The notes: a model not told the origin generated them from the letters alone. Counted from the stretch's first letter, positions 18,269 through 28,370 are shown. The stretch: 64,000 nucleotides of DNA from an uncultured archaeon (GCA_964486045.1 CAZALK010000019.1:1-64000), one strand, 5' to 3'. A program made the numbers and translations.

Positions 18269-20380
18269 ATGAGAAAAAAACAAATTTTCGTACTACTAAC
18301 ACTCTTCGCGTTTTTAAATGCTGCTAGTCTCGGAATATTCATTGTATCAGCTACCGCAAGTACTATTGTCGAAATGCCTGAATATTTAGCCGTTGACATT
18401 AATAGTGGTCTAGCTGGGAATGTAGTTATGCCAAAAATTACCGGTGATCTTGGTCAATATAGTACAGTAGAAGACTTCGAATCAACACCTCCAGTAGGAA
18501 CAGTTGCTGATGATTGGTATCTTTTAGCTTCGACAGGAGATCCCACGATGACACTTCGTGCCGTCTCTGGAAATGTTGAAATCTGGGTACAAAATAATTT
18601 ATCCTTTCCAGGGGGAGATCCAAGAAATGCAGATCCCTATAATACGATGATTACTGACGATATGATAAATTATTTAGCCGACCAATTTAATACTGCTATT
18701 TATCCTAATCTAGCCGATTATTTTGGTACACCTTTAGATAGAAACGGTTCAAATAATTTATTTGAGATAATATCTTGGCCTGGTCCAAGCTATTGGGAAT
18801 GGATCGAAACTGATAATCCTCAAAGAGTCATATTAAAAGTTCTCAATTATCGAGATGATAACTTTTATGACCCAACATATCCGTACTATGTAGCAGGTTT
18901 CTTTGCCGACCTTTATACTAATGTTTATTATGATAGGAATATGGTTCATATCGATTCTTGGCGATGGTGGCAAAGACTTGGCCCAGAAGGGCAAGAATGG
19001 TTCCCGGAGCGTCCTGATTTGGTTGTGACTCGGCCAAACTTATATGAATCAGTAACAGCACACGAATTTCAACATAATATCCATTTTGATCACAATCCAG
19101 ATGATCCTAATTTTATGAACGAAGGTAGTTCCATGTTTGCTGAATTAGTCAGTGGTTACCCAGTCGATTGGAGTGGTATCAACAGCTTTTTACAGACACC
19201 AGATAATTCTCTAACAGAATGGGAGGATCAAGGTGGTATTAACGTTTTGGCTGATTATGGTCAGGCCTTTTTATGGACGACTTATTTAACGGATCATTAC
19301 TCGACTGAAGAATACAAATTCCTATCTCGTTTCATGCAAATAGGTGAACCAGGGATTGAAGGGATTGATCTTACATTAGAAGATTTAGGATTTGATGAAA
19401 GATTCGAGGATGTTTTCAACGATTGGAAAATTGCGAATTTAATCCACTCTGGAGATGGGATATATGATTATATTTCAATTGATTTTGACGATCCTGAGGC
19501 TGGAGATTTGAGAGTTTATGAGTTAAAGAATAAATGGCCTACTGATGTTTTCGGAAGCGATTTTGGAAATACAGTTTCGATCCTTGGCTATGATACGGGT
19601 ATATCTAGAGTTGGCTCATATGGAACGGATTATATCTTATTAAACAAATTAAAATGGCAATTTGACTCTGAATTACAGTTTAATGGAGATGAAGTTGCCT
19701 GGGTACCACATTGGTACAAAGACGGTACAGCATGGTATTCAAGCAGTTCTGAACCTTTAACAGCATTAGACCTCTTTTTAAATGTAGACCTTACTGGTAC
19801 TTCAACTTTAACAATTGATACTATGTATGAAATAGAAGAAGGTTGGGATTTTGGTATTATTCAAATAAATGATGAAAGTTCAGGAGAATGGGTTACGCTT
19901 AATAATTCTTATACAACTTCTGAAAACTGGGGTACTACTGACGCAATTCTCGAAAGCCTTCCAGGGTTAACGGGTAATAGTGGTGGTTGGATAACAATGG
20001 ATTTCGATCTTGCAGGATTTTCAGGACCATCGACTATTCGTTTCCGTTATATGACAGATTGGGCTTATATGGATCCTGGATGGTGGATTGATAATGTAAA
20101 AATCGATGGAACACCAGTGAGTGAAGGTGATTATTGGGATTTATATGATCCACCAGCGACTTCTTTCATAGTAACAGTGATAAGACAGGATTTCTGGGAA
20201 GGAGAATATTATTTCAGTTTAGTTACTGAGATGGTATTGGATTCTAATAATGATGGCGCTATAGATTTAGCACCCTTCCTTTCGTCACCTGGACCACACC
20301 TTCGATATCCTGACGTTATATTAGCGATTACTCCACGTGTTGGTATTGCAGACTACTCATTCTCCGTAGTTAAAACTTAA
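18269..20380 (+). CDS. secreted zinc metallopeptidase (M30/M6 immune-inhibitor-A-like)
   Basis: Signal peptide, AHEFQHNIH..NEG.S, C-terminal YEIEEGWDFG..FRYMTD..GWWIDNV beta-sandwich. Confidence 0.85.
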   Translation: MRKKQIFVLLTLFAFLNAASLGIFIVSATASTIVEMPEYLAVDINSGLAGNVVMPKITGDLGQYSTVEDFESTPPVGTVADDWYLLASTGDPTMTLRAVSGNVEIWVQNNLSFPGGDPRNADPYNTMITDDMINYLADQFNTAIYPNLADYFGTPLDRNGSNNLFEIISWPGPSYWEWIETDNPQRVILKVLNYRDDNFYDPTYPYYVAGFFADLYTNVYYDRNMVHIDSWRWWQRLGPEGQEWFPERPDLVVTRPNLYESVTAHEFQHNIHFDHNPDDPNFMNEGSSMFAELVSGYPVDWSGINSFLQTPDNSLTEWEDQGGINVLADYGQAFLWTTYLTDHYSTEEYKFLSRFMQIGEPGIEGIDLTLEDLGFDERFEDVFNDWKIANLIHSGDGIYDYISIDFDDPEAGDLRVYELKNKWPTDVFGSDFGNTVSILGYDTGISRVGSYGTDYILLNKLKWQFDSELQFNGDEVAWVPHWYKDGTAWYSSSSEPLTALDLFLNVDLTGTSTLTIDTMYEIEEGWDFGIIQINDESSGEWVTLNNSYTTSENWGTTDAILESLPGLTGNSGGWITMDFDLAGFSGPSTIRFRYMTDWAYMDPGWWIDNVKIDGTPVSEGDYWDLYDPPATSFIVTVIRQDFWEGEYYFSLVTEMVLDSNNDGAIDLAPFLSSPGPHLRYPDVILAITPRVGIADYSFSVVKT

Positions 20381-20516
20381 TGAAAGTTGTTAAACAATTT
20401 TAAATATTTTTTTTTTTTAATTTCTTGTTATTTTAACCAGAATATAATAATTAGTATCACTAAAAGCAAAAATCAAGAGTAATCACTGTTTATGTAAAAA
20501 AATTAAAATATTTAAA

Positions 20517-21212
20517 ATGATAAACGTGAAAGATTGGAGTGAAAATGTACAATATAATCTTTTTCCTAAATTTGGCTTAACCGAAAATAAAGCAATTCTT
20601 TATTTTATAAAGCGAGATTTACTCATAAGGTATTCTTCTATTGGGGCAATTAACTATTTTAATAAAACTGGTAACGCCTCTCAGGGAGCTTTTGATAATG
20701 CTGCTGCGGTAGGGACAATTATAGAGCTTGCAAGATACTATAGGGAAAACCCGCTTGATAACATTGATTTAATATTTTTAAGTACGGGTTCTGAGGAACT
20801 TAATTTAGGGGGCGCTATTCACTTTATTAAAAGATATAAACATGAATTTGAAAAAAACTCCACGTTTTTTATCAATCTAGATTTAATTTGGGGATCTGAA
20901 GTTATACGCTTAACAACATCTTATGGGATTCCACGTAAAATATCATCTGTTAAATTAAATAATTTATTTTTCAAAAGTGCCGAGGATTTAAATATTAAAA
21001 TTAAGGATATTTATTATCCCTCAGGGGTTTGGTCAGATTTTATGCCTATTGTCCAAGAGGGATTTGAGGCGTGTTGGGTAGGTTCTGAAACCGGTTTAAA
21101 ATTTGTACATACTATCAATGACACTATGAATCTAGTTTCAAAAGAAGGAATCAAAAATACTCTCTTTTTATGTAAAGATGTAATTGAAAAATTAGATAAA
21201 GAATTTAATTAA
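20517..21212 (+). pseudogene. M28 family peptidase, C-terminal fragment
   Basis: GAFDNAAAV, GSEELNLGG, INLD, SDF.P, HT.ND are present; the N-terminal HxD zinc-ligand segment is missing. Confidence 0.65.
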
Positions 21213-21349: not shown

Positions 21350-22336
21350 ATGATAACTGTAGAACAAGTTAGAGAAGTATTAAAAGATAATGTCATAAAT
21401 CTCCGATTTCATGCGAGAGGTGGCCAAGGAGGAGTTACAGCCTCAAATCTATGTGTAGAAGCGTTTTATGGTTATGGTGTGTCTCAACCTCTTTTTGGCG
21501 CAGAACGAATGGGGTCACCTACTGAAAGCTATGTAAGACTCTCTGCAAATGAAGATTTAGTGCGATCAAATGAACAAGTATATGGTCCACATTTTGTATC
21601 TGTATTAGATCCTTCATTGTTGGGAGAAATAGATGTAGCTGCGGGGATACCTAAAGGTGGTTGGTTAATAGTAAACACAGTTTTGAATCAACAAGATATT
21701 CAAGATAGTGTAAATAGAAAAGATATCAATGTTGCGACTATTGATGCAACAAGAATCGCTACTGAAGTACTAGGAAGAAACATTACTAACACTATAATTT
21801 TGGGTGCTTTAATCCGAGTTTCGAATTTGTTTTCTTTTGAGGAACTATCCGATGCTATAATGAGAAGATTTAGTGGAGAAATTGCAGCAAAAAATGTTGA
21901 AGCAATTAAGCAAGCCATTGAGGAAACCTGCGTATATGACCTTGGTACTGAAATTGATTTTTCCAAAGATACAAAAATCCCATGGCAACAAATAAAATTA
22001 GGCCTCCCGGGATATCAAGAACTCGACAAAGCTGGAGTTTGGTATACTGATGAAGATGTAATAGAAATGGGGAGCTCTCAAGTAATGACCGGAACTTGGG
22101 GAGAGTGGGATATAATTTGGGATAAAGAGAAGTGTACAGATTGCGCACAATGTTGGTTTATTTGCCCAGATTTTGCAATAGTTCGCGAAAAGGGAGAAGA
22201 TAATTTATGGCATATGACTGGAATTGATAATTTTCATTGCAAATCGTGTCAGAATTGTATTAACGTTTGTCCTGTAGATGCAATTACTAAAGAATTAAAA
22301 CAAGGTCCAGCGTCATGTGCTGTACCTGAAGAATAA
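21350..22336 (+). CDS. porC: 2-oxoacid:ferredoxin oxidoreductase gamma subunit fused to delta (2x4Fe-4S)
   Basis: RFHARGGQGGVT, FGAERMGSP, NTIILGA; CTDCAQCWFICPD and CKSCQNCINVCP. Confidence 0.9.
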   Translation: MITVEQVREVLKDNVINLRFHARGGQGGVTASNLCVEAFYGYGVSQPLFGAERMGSPTESYVRLSANEDLVRSNEQVYGPHFVSVLDPSLLGEIDVAAGIPKGGWLIVNTVLNQQDIQDSVNRKDINVATIDATRIATEVLGRNITNTIILGALIRVSNLFSFEELSDAIMRRFSGEIAAKNVEAIKQAIEETCVYDLGTEIDFSKDTKIPWQQIKLGLPGYQELDKAGVWYTDEDVIEMGSSQVMTGTWGEWDIIWDKEKCTDCAQCWFICPDFAIVREKGEDNLWHMTGIDNFHCKSCQNCINVCPVDAITKELKQGPASCAVPEE

Positions 22337-22350
22337 GGGAGGAAAAAATT

Positions 22351-23580
22351 ATGAGTATTGAACCAATGAGAATATTTTTTAAAGAAATTAAAGAACCTAT
22401 TGAAACTACTATGATTGGAAATTATGCAGTAGCTGGAGGAGTTACTCAAACTGACCCTGACGTTATATGTGCATTTCCTATAACACCTCAAACACAATCT
22501 GTTGAAGGTTTGTCAGATGTAGTTCATCACGGAAGACTCAAAGCAGCTTTCATAAATGTGGAATCAGAGTTAGCAGCCATAAGTTATTCAACTGCAGCAT
22601 GTGCAGCTGGAGCGAGAACCTTTACAGCTACAGCATCTCAAGGTTATTTATTGATGACAGAAGCGTTACCGATGGCAGTAGGGTGGCGAGTCCCCTTAAC
22701 CATGTTGATAAGCGCACGTGCATTCAATGCACCAAATCTATCAATCTGGAATAGTTGGGAATTCACACAAGTTAATTCTGAGTTAGGCTGGAATACTATT
22801 GTGTCCGAGAATGTACAAGAAACTTACGATGCTTCAATTTTATCTGTGATGATTTCGGAGGACTCACTTTTCCCTACGATGTTTGTCCATGATGGTTTCA
22901 TAATCTCTCACTCTGTTCAAAGACTAACATTGATACCCGATGAAGTTGTCAGAAGTCTTACTCCAAAAAAACCAAGACATCACATTACCACAGAAAAACC
23001 TGGTGTATGGGGTGGAATAGTGACTCCAGGTTACTTTATGGAAGGGAGAAAGAATTTAGATGAAGCAAAAGAATCTGTGCTAGGTATAATGAGAAGCTCA
23101 TTTGAAAAGTTTTCTAAAGCAACAGGTCGTAAGTATGATTTAATTGAAACATTTAACTTAGATAATTCTTCAAAAACAGCATTCTTGACAATGGGTTCGA
23201 TGTGTGGTAATATAATTAGCTGGATGACGAGAAATAAAGATATTGGCTTAATAAAAATTAGGGCTTATCGTCCTTTTCCTCATGAACAATTAAAAAAAAT
23301 TATTGAAGATAACCATATTGAGAAGTTGATTATTTTAGAAAAATCTGACTCATTAAATGGAGTACTTCCTCCATTTTCAATGTCAATTGCTTCAGCTTTA
23401 TATCCCCTTGGAACCATTTTTAGAAGTTTTGTCGTTGGTCTAGGTGGGAGAGATGTTACAAGAGATGAATTTGACGTAGCTAAAAAGAAAATTGCAAAAG
23501 TTTCTGATATGAAAGGCAAGCTTTATATGTATTTAGGGGTAAGGGAAACAAAATCAAAAATATTTGGGGTGGAAATGTAA
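22351..23580 (+). CDS. porA: 2-oxoacid:ferredoxin oxidoreductase alpha subunit
   Basis: GNYAVA, AFPITPQT, VESE, TATASQG, DGFIISH, YRPFP, GLGGRD. Confidence 0.92.
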   Translation: MSIEPMRIFFKEIKEPIETTMIGNYAVAGGVTQTDPDVICAFPITPQTQSVEGLSDVVHHGRLKAAFINVESELAAISYSTAACAAGARTFTATASQGYLLMTEALPMAVGWRVPLTMLISARAFNAPNLSIWNSWEFTQVNSELGWNTIVSENVQETYDASILSVMISEDSLFPTMFVHDGFIISHSVQRLTLIPDEVVRSLTPKKPRHHITTEKPGVWGGIVTPGYFMEGRKNLDEAKESVLGIMRSSFEKFSKATGRKYDLIETFNLDNSSKTAFLTMGSMCGNIISWMTRNKDIGLIKIRAYRPFPHEQLKKIIEDNHIEKLIILEKSDSLNGVLPPFSMSIASALYPLGTIFRSFVVGLGGRDVTRDEFDVAKKKIAKVSDMKGKLYMYLGVRETKSKIFGVEM

Positions 23581-23581
23581 A

Positions 23582-24670
23582 ATGTCTCAACCTGAGAGAA
23601 ATATCATTAAGTTTGATGATCTCCTCACAAGAGAAGGAAAAACCAATGTTTTATTCCTAAATTATGATAATGAAGCTTTCATGAATACTGGTATCCAGGA
23701 AAGCGGAGCAACCCCTCCTTATGCATCTACTACAACAGGTCCAGCTGGAGAAAAAATACCTGGGAAAGTTGGTGTGAAGCAAGATTTAGTTACACCTTTT
23801 GGTTTTTTTGGCTCAAATGCTTTATTTTTAGCAACTGGTAACCCAGCTTATCCAAATGATTTTATGGGTAAAATTGTTGAAGGATTAAAATCAAATGGGT
23901 CTGCTTTCGTTCAAACATATTCTGATTGCATGAGAGGATGGCGACATGATGCGGGAGATGCTGTGAAAATCTCTAAACTTGCTACAGATTGTGGATATTG
24001 GCCACTTTATACGATTCGCGTGAAAGATGGCCTCCCAACTTTCTCTTACTATCGTGGTTTAGATATTGTTAAAGAGAAATTTGTTGAATATTTGAAATCA
24101 ATGGGAAGATTTAGACACCTATTTAAACCGAAATTCATGGAGAAGGAAATAGACGAAATTATTTATTATACCGAACAAAGAAATAAGAAATTGAAAGGAT
24201 TAATTGAAGTTTTTGGAGCCGAAAAACCTATTGATGTGTATAGAGTGAATAGAAAAACGTTAAAACCGCAAACTCATTTATCTCCAGGTCATGGTCTCTG
24301 TCCAGGATGCGGAGCTGGTATGGTATTAAACCAATTAGCTACAGCAGCAAATGCAGTCACAGGGAAAAATATAATTTACGTCAATAATACATCATGTATT
24401 GAGGTATCAACATCAAAGGATAATGTAGCTTCTTGGAGAGTTCCATGGGTTCACCATCTTTTTGAATCCGGGGCAACTGTAGCAGAAGCCATAAGTACTG
24501 CTTATAAAATTCGAAAAGCTAAAGGTCAGTTTGACGGTGAAGTCCCTTATATCATTCATATAGGAGGAGATGGATCAACATATGACATTGGGTTTCAATT
24601 CCTTAAGGCAGCCATTATCAGAACGAGTACTATGGTCGAAATGAATGAATATTTAAAAGATCAAAAATAA
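23582..24670 (+). CDS. porB: 2-oxoacid:ferredoxin oxidoreductase beta subunit, circularly permuted
   Basis: YDNEAFMNTGIQ.S..TP..STTT precedes PGHGLCPGCG and GGDG..DIG. ATG 23582 directly follows the porA stop. Confidence 0.88.
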   Translation: MSQPERNIIKFDDLLTREGKTNVLFLNYDNEAFMNTGIQESGATPPYASTTTGPAGEKIPGKVGVKQDLVTPFGFFGSNALFLATGNPAYPNDFMGKIVEGLKSNGSAFVQTYSDCMRGWRHDAGDAVKISKLATDCGYWPLYTIRVKDGLPTFSYYRGLDIVKEKFVEYLKSMGRFRHLFKPKFMEKEIDEIIYYTEQRNKKLKGLIEVFGAEKPIDVYRVNRKTLKPQTHLSPGHGLCPGCGAGMVLNQLATAANAVTGKNIIYVNNTSCIEVSTSKDNVASWRVPWVHHLFESGATVAEAISTAYKIRKAKGQFDGEVPYIIHIGGDGSTYDIGFQFLKAAIIRTSTMVEMNEYLKDQK

Positions 24671-25021: not shown

Positions 25022-26425
25022 ATGGGAATTGCCATATTTCAAGATGGTATGGTAATATATGCAAATCCGACGCTGACTAAGATTAATGGTTTTTCCAATG
25101 ATGAGATGATGAGTTGGGATCCTGGTGAATTTCTAAAGAATATTCATAGAGATGATACCAACTTAGTTGTAAAATATTTTCAAGAAGCCTTAGAAACACC
25201 ACCTAAAAGTACAGAATTTGAGTGTCGAGTGTTTTCAAAAACAAAAGAATTAAAGTGGGTTCGAGTTTTCCTAAGACAAATTGAGTTTAAAGGCAAACAT
25301 GCTATATATCTTACTGTAATTGATGATACAAAAAGTAAAAAATTAGAACAAAAATTACTCGAAAATGAAAAAAATTCTCGAGTAAATTCTTTTTTAGCCC
25401 GTTTGTTTATGGAGAGTATGTCTTGTATTGTTCTTCTATTGAGACCAGGTACTCGTGAAGTAGTTATGTCAAATCAAAAAGGTATAGATGTTGGAGCATT
25501 ACCGGGAAGGCATTGTTATGATACGTGGGGTCAGCGCAATGATCCATGTCCTTGGTGTTTAGCACCTAAAGCTTGGGAAACAGGTAAAGCCCAGCACTCA
25601 ATTGTTGACGCACTTGATAAGGTATGGGAAGCATATTGGGTTCCGATTCGAAAGGATTTGTATCTTTACTATGCTTTTGATATAACTGATCAAGCAAAAA
25701 GAAATCAAAAAATTGAAGAATTAAATAAAATGAAGTCTGAAATAATAGCAAGAACATCTCATGAATTAAAAACTCCCTTAGTTTCAATTAAAGGATTTAC
25801 GGATCTTTTATTAGATCGCCTGAAAGATTCTTTGGATAGCAAATCAATTTTGCTAATAGAAGAGATAAAAAACGGTTGTGCTCGTTTAGAAAATTTAATC
25901 GGAGACATATTATTAACATCCCAATTAGACTCCAAAACCTATGAGTTGCATAAAACAACCCAAAATTTATCCGATCTTGTAAAAACTTGTATAAAGGAAT
26001 TAACAGGATTAGTAAAATTACGACATCTTAAAATTAATTTAGATATTCATGAAGACTTAGTCACTAAATTAGATTTAGAACGCATTCATGAAGTAATCTC
26101 TAATTTAATAACCAACGCTATTAAATTTACCCCAATTAACGGAGAAATTGATATCAAATCTAAAAAAAAACAGAATTATTATTACATTTCGGTTAAAGAC
26201 AATGGGATTGGATTTACAAAAGAAGAAGAGAATAAAATTTTTACACAATTTGGGAAAATCGAACACTATGGTCAAGGATTTGATGTATTGATTGAGGGAA
26301 CTGGCCTCGGGTTATATATTTCTAAAAGAATAATTGGGGCGCATGATGGACAAATATGGATGAAGTCTAAGGGAAGAAACAAAGGCTCTACTTTTACATT
26401 TACAATCCCTATCATAAAAGTGTAG
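25022..26425 (+). CDS. cytoplasmic PAS-domain sensor histidine kinase
   Basis: PAS domain; SHELKTPL (H-box), NLITNAIKF, DNGIG, GTGLGL. The frame is open upstream to ~24926. Confidence 0.92.
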   Translation: MGIAIFQDGMVIYANPTLTKINGFSNDEMMSWDPGEFLKNIHRDDTNLVVKYFQEALETPPKSTEFECRVFSKTKELKWVRVFLRQIEFKGKHAIYLTVIDDTKSKKLEQKLLENEKNSRVNSFLARLFMESMSCIVLLLRPGTREVVMSNQKGIDVGALPGRHCYDTWGQRNDPCPWCLAPKAWETGKAQHSIVDALDKVWEAYWVPIRKDLYLYYAFDITDQAKRNQKIEELNKMKSEIIARTSHELKTPLVSIKGFTDLLLDRLKDSLDSKSILLIEEIKNGCARLENLIGDILLTSQLDSKTYELHKTTQNLSDLVKTCIKELTGLVKLRHLKINLDIHEDLVTKLDLERIHEVISNLITNAIKFTPINGEIDIKSKKKQNYYYISVKDNGIGFTKEEENKIFTQFGKIEHYGQGFDVLIEGTGLGLYISKRIIGAHDGQIWMKSKGRNKGSTFTFTIPIIKV

Positions 26426-26596
26426 TTCGCGTTCAATCAGTTTATTTATTTTTGAATAGATTTTTCATTTTCAATCACGACAAAATGATAGTAAATTCCT
26501 ATATTTGGAGGATTTATTTAATCTTTTGAAAAGAATAATAACACTTAATTCAATTAAAAAATTAAATTAATTTACAAATATATTATGGGGATTTGA

Positions 26597-27664
26597 GTGG
26601 AACAAGGCTATAGTTCATTATCGAACTTAGGTAAAATAAAAAAAAATGTTAAGAGAATGCGTATCTCCAGTTATGATAAATCTGGAGCAAATGCCGATTT
26701 TGTAATTATTGATGAGCAAAATAAATTTGAGCTATGTTCTCTAGAGACGAGTGGGATTATTAAACATATTTGGATGACTTTAGCATCAGCAGATCCGTAT
26801 TATTTAAGAAAAATTTTAATACGTATATGGTGGGATGATGAAGAAAATCCTTCTGTTGAATGTCCTATTGGCGATTTTTTCGGAATTGGTCATGGGAAAT
26901 CCGTGAATTTCTGGAGTTTACCTTTATCTATGGGTCCTCAAGATGGTAAAGGATTCAACTGTTTTTTTCCTATGCCATTTTCAACTAGAGCAAGGATCGA
27001 GCTTGAGAATGAAACTGAAGTGAAATTAATATGTTACTATTATATTGATTATGAGAAATATGAAAAAATTGATAACTCCTTCGGAAGATTTCATGTATCC
27101 TGGTACAGAGAAAACCCATGCTCAGGTCAGGACTATGTACAATTAAAAAAGTCGAATTTGAAATCTGAAAAGTTTAGTAAAAAAAATCCTGATCATACAG
27201 ATGATTACGTTATCTTAGATGCTAGCGGTGAGGGTCATTATGTAGGGTGTCATTTAGATATACATAATTTATTTGAAACTGAGAGAATGAACTGGCCTGG
27301 TGAAGGTGATGACTATATTGAAATAGATGATGGAGAAATTATACTTCATGGAACTGGTACTGAGGATTATTTTTGTACTGCTTGGTCTCCATCGAAATTT
27401 TATTGTTCACCTTATTTCGGGATAACATTGCCAGGTGGGAAGAATTGGAGTGGAAAAATCTCATATTACCGATACCATATAGAAGATCCGATATATTTTC
27501 ATAAAAATATTAAAGTCAAGATTGAACATGGACACGCAAATCAACGTTCAGATGATTTTTCTTCTACTGCTTATTGGTATCAGACGGAACCTCACAAAAA
27601 ATTCAGCCTCATAATGGAAGTAAATAAAAGATTACCAAGAGAAGAACCTAAGTTGAAAGACTAA
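26597..27664 (+). CDS. DUF2961 / glycoside hydrolase family 172 protein
   Basis: HIWMT, PSVECPIGDFFG, FNCFFPMPF, GEGDD, GTGTEDYF, YRYHIEDPIYF, EHGHAN, AYWYQ. Confidence 0.88.
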   Translation: MEQGYSSLSNLGKIKKNVKRMRISSYDKSGANADFVIIDEQNKFELCSLETSGIIKHIWMTLASADPYYLRKILIRIWWDDEENPSVECPIGDFFGIGHGKSVNFWSLPLSMGPQDGKGFNCFFPMPFSTRARIELENETEVKLICYYYIDYEKYEKIDNSFGRFHVSWYRENPCSGQDYVQLKKSNLKSEKFSKKNPDHTDDYVILDASGEGHYVGCHLDIHNLFETERMNWPGEGDDYIEIDDGEIILHGTGTEDYFCTAWSPSKFYCSPYFGITLPGGKNWSGKISYYRYHIEDPIYFHKNIKVKIEHGHANQRSDDFSSTAYWYQTEPHKKFSLIMEVNKRLPREEPKLKD

Positions 27665-27680
27665 CTGTTATTAGGATTAA

Positions 27681-28370
27681 TTATTCGAGAGCTTCTTCGA
27701 TTGCGGCTCTCGCAAGTAATCTAGTCGAATCTAAACATGGTAAAGGACAATCTTTAGAACCCATCAAAATTGGAATTTCTGTACACCCAAGAATTACTGC
27801 GTCGCATCCATTATTTTTTAATCTTTTAATAACACGATTAAGATATAATCTAGATTCTTCTTTAATTATACCGTTTACGAGCTCTTCAAATATTATTCGA
27901 TCGACTTTACTTATATCAATTTCTTTTGGTATTTCACTTTTTATTCCAAGTTTTTCTAAGGATTTGGGATAAACTGATGAGGTTACTAGGTATTTAGTAC
28001 CTAATATGCCCAATTTTTTAAACTTACTACGTTTAGCCTCTTTTCCTACAACTTCAGCGATATGTAGCCAAGGAATCGGGGATTTAGATATCATTAGGTC
28101 GTATGCTTGGTGGATAGTATTGTCAGGACAAATTGCAAAATCTGCACCTGCTTCTGCAACAATCTTTACTGACTTAAGCATAAGCTCTGCTACTCTTTCC
28201 CAATCTCCATTCCAGATGTGTTGCATGTAATCCGAAAAAGGTGGTGTATGCATAGTTATTTCAGGGTGCCTATATTTAAATAGTTTTACCGGAGCTTCAA
28301 TACATATCGTTGTGTAACATAAAGCCGCACCCTCCGCACTACAAGCAACAATTCCTATATGTTTTACCAC
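27681..28370 (-). CDS. aspartate/glutamate racemase family protein
   Basis: CPDNTIH, GILGT, ILGCTEIP, DST. Confidence 0.9.
   Translation of the reverse strand: MVKHIGIVACSAEGAALCYTTICIEAPVKLFKYRHPEITMHTPPFSDYMQHIWNGDWERVAELMLKSVKIVAEAGADFAICPDNTIHQAYDLMISKSPIPWLHIAEVVGKEAKRSKFKKLGILGTKYLVTSSVYPKSLEKLGIKSEIPKEIDISKVDRIIFEELVNGIIKEESRLYLNRVIKRLKNNGCDAVILGCTEIPILMGSKDCPLPCLDSTRLLARAAIEEALE

Follow-up and report, generated by a model that had tools for sequence, protein, structure and literature searches.

In PorB, the beta subunit of four-component 2-oxoacid:ferredoxin oxidoreductases (OFORs), the canonical order of motifs runs from PGH..CPGCG through T[GS]C, H..FE, GDG..DIG and DNE.YMNTG.Q.S..TP to C..GW. 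Among ThDP enzymes more widely, the PYR and PP domains occur in differing orders or on separate chains, a shuffling which, like the protein described here, shows that the two halves of the site can be connected in different ways. Domain shuffling moves whole domains, however, whereas in the present case the chain is cut inside the PP domain, within the GDG-X-N motif.

The PorB of M. acetivorans (PDB 9bt4 chain C; NCBIfam model NF008819) has in common with our protein the motifs PGH..CxxC, T.C, HLFE, GDG..DIG, DNE..NTG, C..GW and RFRHL, an identity of 30–40% over each half, a gene placed downstream of porA and the fold predicted for each half. By comparison with it, the permuted form swaps the halves at residues 115/118 and fuses the native termini, carries 21 additional residues at the N-terminus and 15 at the C-terminus, reaches about half the HMM cut-off score and has seven clade-specific replacements. 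The beta subunit of the oxalate oxidoreductase (OOR) of Moorella thermoacetica (5c4i, 5exd and 5exe, chain C) is the second-best match in both sequence and structure, again as two swapped pieces, and OOR too has a fused subunit of the gamma-delta type, the porGD product of our locus matching the OxalOxreddelta model (residues 52–314). OOR beta itself is in canonical order, however, and the permuted protein scores 190 against the OOR equivalog cut-off of 590; since the OOR scores fall far below their cut-offs, they give no basis for naming oxalate as the substrate. The nearest canonical sequences are PorBs of Bathyarchaeia (the cluster of P0126), which are 40–43% identical and collinear with the PorB models. 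The genome under study also encodes two canonical POR/VOR-type PorB paralogues on its contig C1, each, like the permuted gene, with an adjacent PorA, but collinear with the models. The permuted clade is separated from the Bathyarchaeia proteins and from these paralogues by a branch of length ~1.1 (SH-aLRT 100).

Swapped order of the two PorB halves

The gene lies in a stretch of 64,000 nucleotides from an uncultured Loki-type Asgard archaeon (GCA_964486045.1, CAZALK010000019.1:1-64000), referred to here as the window. A preliminary description, made from the DNA alone, had claimed that it encodes a circularly permuted PorB with the ThDP motif divided between the two termini, at the normal operon position. 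The frame is unbroken from ATG to TAA, and the gene does close a porGD-porA-porB operon, with 14 nt between porGD and porA and 1 nt between the porA stop and the porB ATG. The features of the operon and of the permuted gene are as follows.

21350–22336, plus strand: porGD, 328 aa, the gamma POR domain fused to the delta 2x[4Fe-4S] ferredoxin (Pfam POR, 1.5e-29, and Fer4 families; NCBIfam PorC/PorD families; orthologues adjacent in 5 of 7 distant genomes)
22351–23580, plus strand: porA, 409 aa, the alpha subunit with Pyr domain and domain II (Pfam POR_N, 9.9e-52, and PFOR_II)
23582–24670, plus strand: circularly permuted porB, 362 aa and stop (swapped two-piece alignments; homologues)
23582–23644, plus strand: new N-terminal extension, aa 1–21, with a short strand (6–10) and a helix (11–15) in the model; it is without counterpart in canonical PorB alignments, is conserved in the family and has pLDDT 76–94
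23645–24160, plus strand: canonical C-terminal half (PorB 118–282), with the strand and DNE/NTG (aa 29–37), Cys116 in C..GW, and RFRHL (PDB alignment, invariant residues, VIA-align)
24161–24262, plus strand: linker, aa 194–227, made of the native C-terminal helix and the native N-terminal lead-in; it lies between the two HSPs (helix 187–211 and strand 212–221 in the model)
24263–24622, plus strand: canonical N-terminal half (PorB 5–115), with PGH..CxxC (Cys240, Cys243), T.C (Cys272), HLFE and GDG..DIG (aa 329–337), to the invariant Arg347 (PDB alignment, invariant residues, VIA-align)
24623–24667, plus strand: new C-terminal tail, aa 348–362, conserved in the family; the post-GDG helix continues to residue 354 in the model

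A TTG at 23564, upstream of the ATG, is a possible alternative start, but 46 of 46 aligned homologues start at the ATG-equivalent position. The genes on either side (18269–21212 and 25022–28370) include one for a secreted-looking protein of 703 aa with an InhA-like MAM domain and an HEFQH metalloprotease motif, and others for a short M28 peptidase (231 aa), a PAS histidine kinase, a DUF2961 protein and, on the minus strand, an Asp/Glu racemase.

When the 362-residue protein was compared with PDB sequences by phmmer, it aligned to the 296-residue M. acetivorans PorB (9bt4_C) in two pieces, query residues 228–347 with chain residues 5–115 (i-E 4.7e-19) and query residues 22–193 with chain residues 118–282 (i-E 4.3e-24); the two pieces are in swapped order, do not overlap and lie in a single ORF. 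The OOR beta chain 5c4i_C gave the same swapped pair of matches. The curated PorB model NF008819 likewise matches in two stretches, with 213 bits against a cut-off of 405, and in each of five closed single-contig genomes it gives the reversed pair of matches inside one ORF. Pfam, in which OFOR beta subunits of the PorB/VorB type belong to PF02775, finds no family on the whole protein at E up to 0.01. The split alignment thus returned two HSPs in swapped order, as the preliminary description had expected, and neither of the outcomes that it named as fatal, halves collinear with standard PorB or a misassembly, was encountered, the second being excluded by recurrence of the arrangement in 131 genomes. 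The permutation is real and goes well beyond anything expected by chance; more than 100 independent assemblies show the same arrangement.

The breakpoint falls between PorB residues 115 and 118, after the helix that follows GDG..DIG, which ends at Arg347 of our protein, and before the strand that ends in DNE. DNE is consequently found at aa 29–31 (nt 23666–23674), 29 residues from the N-terminus, and GDG at aa 329–331 (nt 24566–24574), 33 residues from the C-terminus, so that the ThDP motif is indeed divided between the two ends of the chain. In 47 of 47 canonical relatives the spacing from GDG to DNE is 28 residues; in the permuted protein the two are 300 residues apart and in reversed order, and a criterion based on a contiguous N-to-C ThDP-Mg motif, GDG-X(~28)-(D/N)N, fails to recognise it. 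The cluster cysteines are Cys116, Cys240, Cys243 and Cys272. All four of them are invariant in 46 sequences, together with D29, N30, E31, N35, T36, G37, G329, D330 and G331, which upholds the earlier statement that the four Fe-S cysteines and both halves of the ThDP/Mg motif are kept in one frame.

Five of seven distant genomes of the class have the same gene order, porGD-porA-porB(permuted), and the other two have all three genes, unlinked. In the closed genome G279 the permuted porB (C1:1502551-1503600) lies ~540 kb from porA-porGD (C1:2045958-2048108), and in G129 porGD and the porA-porB pair are found on separate contigs.

Predicted fold and function of the permuted enzyme

The product of the ORF at 23582–24670 is very probably a natural circular permutant that functions as the beta subunit of a four-component 2-oxoacid:ferredoxin oxidoreductase of POR/VOR type, with fused gamma and delta subunits. 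An AlphaFold2 model made with the family alignment has a mean pLDDT of 80 and a pTM of 0.86. Low confidence is confined to the cofactor loop (32–70), the equivalent of which is ordered by the cofactor and by PorA in real enzymes. The best Foldseek matches of the model are PorB, OOR and PFOR structures. With VIA-align, residues ~10–210 of the model match the C-terminal half of domain VI or PorB in PFOR, OOR and PorB structures (Z 10.4–12.3, 168–185 residues aligned), and residues 225–362 match the N-terminal part of OGOR/OFOR beta chains (Z 4.3–4.5). Each structural match covers one half only because the aligners are sequential, and this half-by-half matching, although short of a full superposition, is what would be expected of a permutant. 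The modelling therefore suggests, half by half, that the three-dimensional fold is the canonical one.

Read along its length, the chain begins at the strand that normally carries the DNE/NTG half of the ThDP-Mg motif and goes on through what is usually the C-terminal half, with the fourth [4Fe-4S] cysteine in it. The tails that form the C- and N-termini of canonical PorB are joined and serve as a linker to the usual N-terminal half, which closes the chain with the CxxC and T.C cysteines, GDG and its helix. Once folded, the halves would rebuild an ordinary PP domain, in which Asp330 (of GDG) and Asn30 (of DNE) would bind Mg-ThDP at the interface with PorA, and Cys116, Cys240, Cys243 and Cys272 would hold the proximal cluster that passes electrons to the PorD ferredoxin domain. 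Ligands of alpha/beta folds usually sit at the C-terminal ends of the strands, and for that reason the cut helix-to-strand loop would be expected on the edge of the sheet opposite Mg-ThDP. The earlier claim of a cut inside the cofactor motif thus holds for the sequence, but in space, by the same logic of the fold, the cut is probably in a helix-to-strand loop separated from ThDP by the sheet. The enzyme is presumably catalytically active, and family scores make pyruvate or a branched or short 2-oxoacid the most likely substrate.

The partner subunit is also unusual. PorA of the window scores 298 bits with the PorA_Arch model against a cut-off of 550, in a match that begins at residue 19, and the PorAs of permuted operons share a conserved N-terminal extension of ~19 aa (22351–22410 in the window, aa 1–20) with a PM..FF.EIKE-like pattern. 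This extension is shared by 7 of 7 PorAs from permuted operons, in conserved form, but neither the canonical PorA of the genome nor the PorA_Arch model has it; it may have co-evolved with the permuted beta subunit. PorA of the permuted type was found in 130 of 400 genomes of the phylum, in the same families as the permuted beta, and is 58–91% identical across the class as against 31–33% to the canonical paralogues. Among the same 400 genomes there was no case of it paired with a canonical beta and, apart from contaminant-like copies in one genome (G075, see below), none outside the class. As the distribution of PorA matches that of the permuted beta, the whole enzyme forms a distinct, divergent lineage. 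The scores of PorB (213 of 405 bits) and PorA (298 of 550 bits) mark a divergent enzyme to which family scores assign no substrate; for PorB, the shortfall against NF008819 is due to the swapped order.

Within the permuted subunit, seven positions that are conserved in 81–100% of canonical sequences are replaced throughout the clade, namely C to N27, Y to F33, R to E40, K to Q67, A to G77, Y to F82 and S to K342. Two of them (R to E40 and K to Q67) are close to the cofactor loop and two others (C to N27 and S to K342) adjoin the breakpoint; together, the seven could signal altered function. The reading that competes best with ours is that the enzyme is functional but neofunctionalised, a distinct OFOR with another substrate, electron partner or mode of assembly rather than a plain pyruvate oxidoreductase; the new PorB termini might, for example, contact the N-terminal extension of PorA. 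A stem branch of 1.0–1.1 substitutions per site, clade-specific replacements at conserved positions with two changes of charge near the cofactor loop, a conserved 19-aa PorA extension that occurs only with the permuted beta, coexistence with two canonical POR/VOR paralogues, and best family scores that are split among PorB, OOR beta and VorB all point in this direction. Yet nothing favours any particular substrate directly, the residues common to the OFOR machinery are all retained, and Imachi et al. (2020; PMC7015854) assign a plain PFOR. We regard neofunctionalisation as possible but rather unlikely. In the same tentative vein, the permutation might, instead of being a neutral re-threading, mark a functionally distinct oxoacid oxidoreductase of Lokiarchaeia, in which moved chain ends, changes of charge and the PorA extension combine to give a new interface, new regulation or a new substrate or acceptor specificity; if that were so, central catabolism would include a distinct enzyme in those archaea that are nearest to the cultured models of eukaryogenesis. 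The reading that we prefer remains a functional permutant of POR/VOR type.

Origin of the permutation

For phylogenetic analysis, the permuted sequences were re-ordered for alignment only and combined with 47 canonical representatives and the two paralogues of the genome itself. They form one clade with an SH-aLRT of 100 on a stem of ~1.1 substitutions per site, and among the best 150 representatives there is neither a specific canonical sister of this clade nor any tandem, split or otherwise intermediate form of porB. A single origin fits, since the clade is monophyletic on a long stem, and the trees are consistent with one permutation event no later than the base of the class.

Duplication of the regions at the breakpoint could leave relics at the new termini, the N-terminal extension then corresponding to the post-GDG helix and the C-terminal tail to the DNE strand. 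Global hhalign alignments are of low confidence there, and profile Smith-Waterman comparisons against 2000 column shuffles gave p values of 0.24–0.58, so that such relics are not supported; the resemblance of the extensions to the helix and strand in question is faint and does not exceed that of shuffled controls. Some HMMER alignments run on to residue 352 or start at residue 18, hinting at a duplicated stretch of ~5 residues.

Several canonical-order PorB relatives contain inteins of 480–550 aa, with Intein_splicing and LAGLIDADG_3 domains, at three sites that all lie inside the ThDP-Mg motif:

Before the Cys of CYDNE: P0127, P0134, P0155, P0166, P0184, P0201 and P0264
After GDG: P0156 and P0160
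After YMN: P0150 and P0269

The motif is thus an intein hot spot. One of these sites falls between the equivalents of L26 and N27 of the window protein, five residues from the breakpoint, and the Cys that canonical proteins use as the intein +1 residue is an invariant N27 in the permuted clade, which together raise the thought that an intein-bearing or intein-split porB was reordered and left intein relics as the terminal extensions. The extensions show no similarity to intein ends, however (p 0.82 and 0.36 against shuffles), and the intein-bearing PorBs are scattered in the tree rather than sister to the permuted clade. Since conserved cofactor motifs are the usual targets of inteins, an intein site near the breakpoint is expected by chance. 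We therefore think an intein origin very improbable.

Conservation, transcription and distribution

Over the whole gene, comparison with six congeners by the Nei-Gojobori method gave pN 0.054–0.081 against pS 0.60–0.69, corresponding to a dN/dS of ~0.04–0.05, a rough figure because synonymous sites are near saturation. The segments created by the permutation behave in the same manner, with pN 0.10–0.19 against pS 0.53–0.90 in the N-terminal extension, pN 0.04–0.11 against pS 0.52–0.74 in the linker (aa 194–227) and pN 0.03–0.12 against pS of at least 0.55 in the C-terminal tail (aa 348–362). The permuted porB is under strong purifying selection, and its new termini and linker are constrained as well.

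The orthologue in the cultured relative Promethearchaeum syntrophicum MK-D1 is transcribed, according to data in the study by Imachi et al. (2020; PMC7015854). Supplementary Table 4 of that work lists DSAG12_00808, DSAG12_00809 and DSAG12_00810 as the beta, alpha and delta/gamma subunits of a PFOR in 2-oxoacid degradation, with expression levels of 286, 372 and 314 (RPKM, as stated in its methods), which resemble those of other catabolic genes in the same table (PMC7015854).

It might be argued that the gene is a non-functional relic, a pseudogene whose frame is open by chance, given that its NCBI name is ‘hypothetical’ and its Pfam annotation blank, and that two canonical PorB paralogues in the same genome could cover the function. 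Against this, pN is well below pS in all segments (ratio ~0.1 or less), catalytic and ligand residues have stayed unchanged across the divergence of the class, the partner PorA is retained with the same distribution and the MK-D1 orthologue is transcribed, and a relic is in our view even less credible than an intein origin. The preliminary description had argued for a functional natural permutant, and this prediction is in keeping with the low dN/dS, the invariant catalytic residues, the operon and the non-zero RNA-seq level reported for MK-D1.

A protein search of 5.8 billion proteins, clustered at 90% identity, found more than 100 clusters of proteins of 355–368 aa that are 52–93% identical to the query over 98–100% of its length; their source labels are Lokiarchaeota/Promethearchaeota, with some Hel-, Thor- and Hermodarchaeota. 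In an all-against-all representative library, the sole full-length match in a single stretch outside the cluster of the query was P0121 (52% identity), the remaining strong matches being canonical, in two stretches and at most 43% identical. We further surveyed 400 genomes of the phylum at a match threshold of E up to 1e-40, the class being represented by 161 genomes in families f1–f7. The permuted PorB was present in 131 of the 400, every match being collinear with the permuted query, and these divide sharply between the class (130 of 161, 81%, in a form of 355–370 aa) and the rest of the phylum (1 of 239). The permuted PorB is thus a class-wide circular permutant, in Lokiarchaeia, of a well-known enzyme subunit. 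The preliminary description had proposed to look for the same order in other Lokiarchaeia, and closed genomes of cultured strains are among those that have it.

The sole match outside the class, in G075, is a fragment of permuted PorB at a contig end with 83% identity to genes of family f1, and the same genome has two PorA copies, 85–87% identical to family f1 genes; the fragment and the copies lie on short contigs (C23:772-2799 and C29:1440-2639). On account of the contig-end fragment and of two PorA copies so close to family f1, this match looks like binning contamination. Isolated in-frame stops were seen in other orthologues, one TAG in G123:C221, one TAA in G159:C127, and a TAG and a TAA in G273:C60; sequencing error, decay or another cause could account for them.

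Exact look-ups found the permuted PorB in the closed genomes of P. syntrophicum MK-D1 (DSAG12_00808, QEE14985.1), Lokiarchaeum ossiferum B-35 (NEF87_002873) and Harpocratesius repetitus, where all three orthologues bear the NCBI name ‘hypothetical protein’. Each of five single-contig genomes has two canonical, collinear PorB genes in addition (NF008819). The possibility that the permuted beta is the only POR-type beta of the cultured strains was considered and rejected, since each strain has two canonical ones. That errors of assembly or binning, through a tandem porB repeat collapsed or joined wrongly, mimic a permutation is the least probable reading of all and can be dismissed, for although the assembly behind the window has 45 contigs and 7.8% contamination, the collinear form recurs in 131 genomes, including five single-contig genomes and two cultured strains sequenced by different groups, and its orthologues differ at 7–49% of residues with synonymous sites near saturation, which no artefact would yield.

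Full-text literature searches found no published description of a PorB swap or of a cut inside the PP domain, and no mention of the swapped order was found in the passages and supplementary tables examined from Imachi et al. (2020; PMC7015854). For protein evolution, this is a clean and ancient case of a ThDP enzyme permuted by nature within its PP domain, which splits the GDG-X-N signature. It indicates that the cofactor site tolerates re-threading, and could guide the engineering of OFORs and of split or permuted ThDP enzymes. For annotation, models that depend on order fail here, Pfam being blank, NCBIfam reaching half its cut-off and NCBI naming the protein ‘hypothetical’ in MK-D1 and L. 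ossiferum, and one oxoacid oxidoreductase can therefore be overlooked or wrongly labelled when the metabolism of Lokiarchaeia is reconstructed automatically. For taxonomy, the ratio of 130 of 161 to 1 of 239 makes the gene a sharp molecular marker of the class. For Asgard physiology, this very gene set is used as the PFOR of MK-D1 amino-acid fermentation by Imachi et al. (2020; PMC7015854), and its pyruvate specificity is now a testable question.

Three genomes from two genera (G163, G273 and G274) have a 30-nt insert with an in-frame TGA in the Ile38 codon of the permuted porB, within the invariant NTGIQES motif. Its positions are:

L024:253-282 (G163:C1)
L025:233-262 (G274:C195)
L026:282-311 (G273:C59)

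The insert is absent from the other 158 of the 161 class genomes, and the window gene is without it. In the three genomes its sequence pairs into a 9-bp hairpin, in which three base pairs show compensatory changes from one genome to another; the hairpin is flanked by short unpaired stretches exactly 30 nt apart that stand beside short outer helices. Removal of the 30 nt restores the consensus motif and the open frame in all three, and the ORF downstream is under strong purifying selection among the three genomes (pN 0.05–0.16 against pS 0.81–0.87). The insert looks like a candidate intron of the bulge-helix-bulge type in the mRNA of a protein-coding gene.
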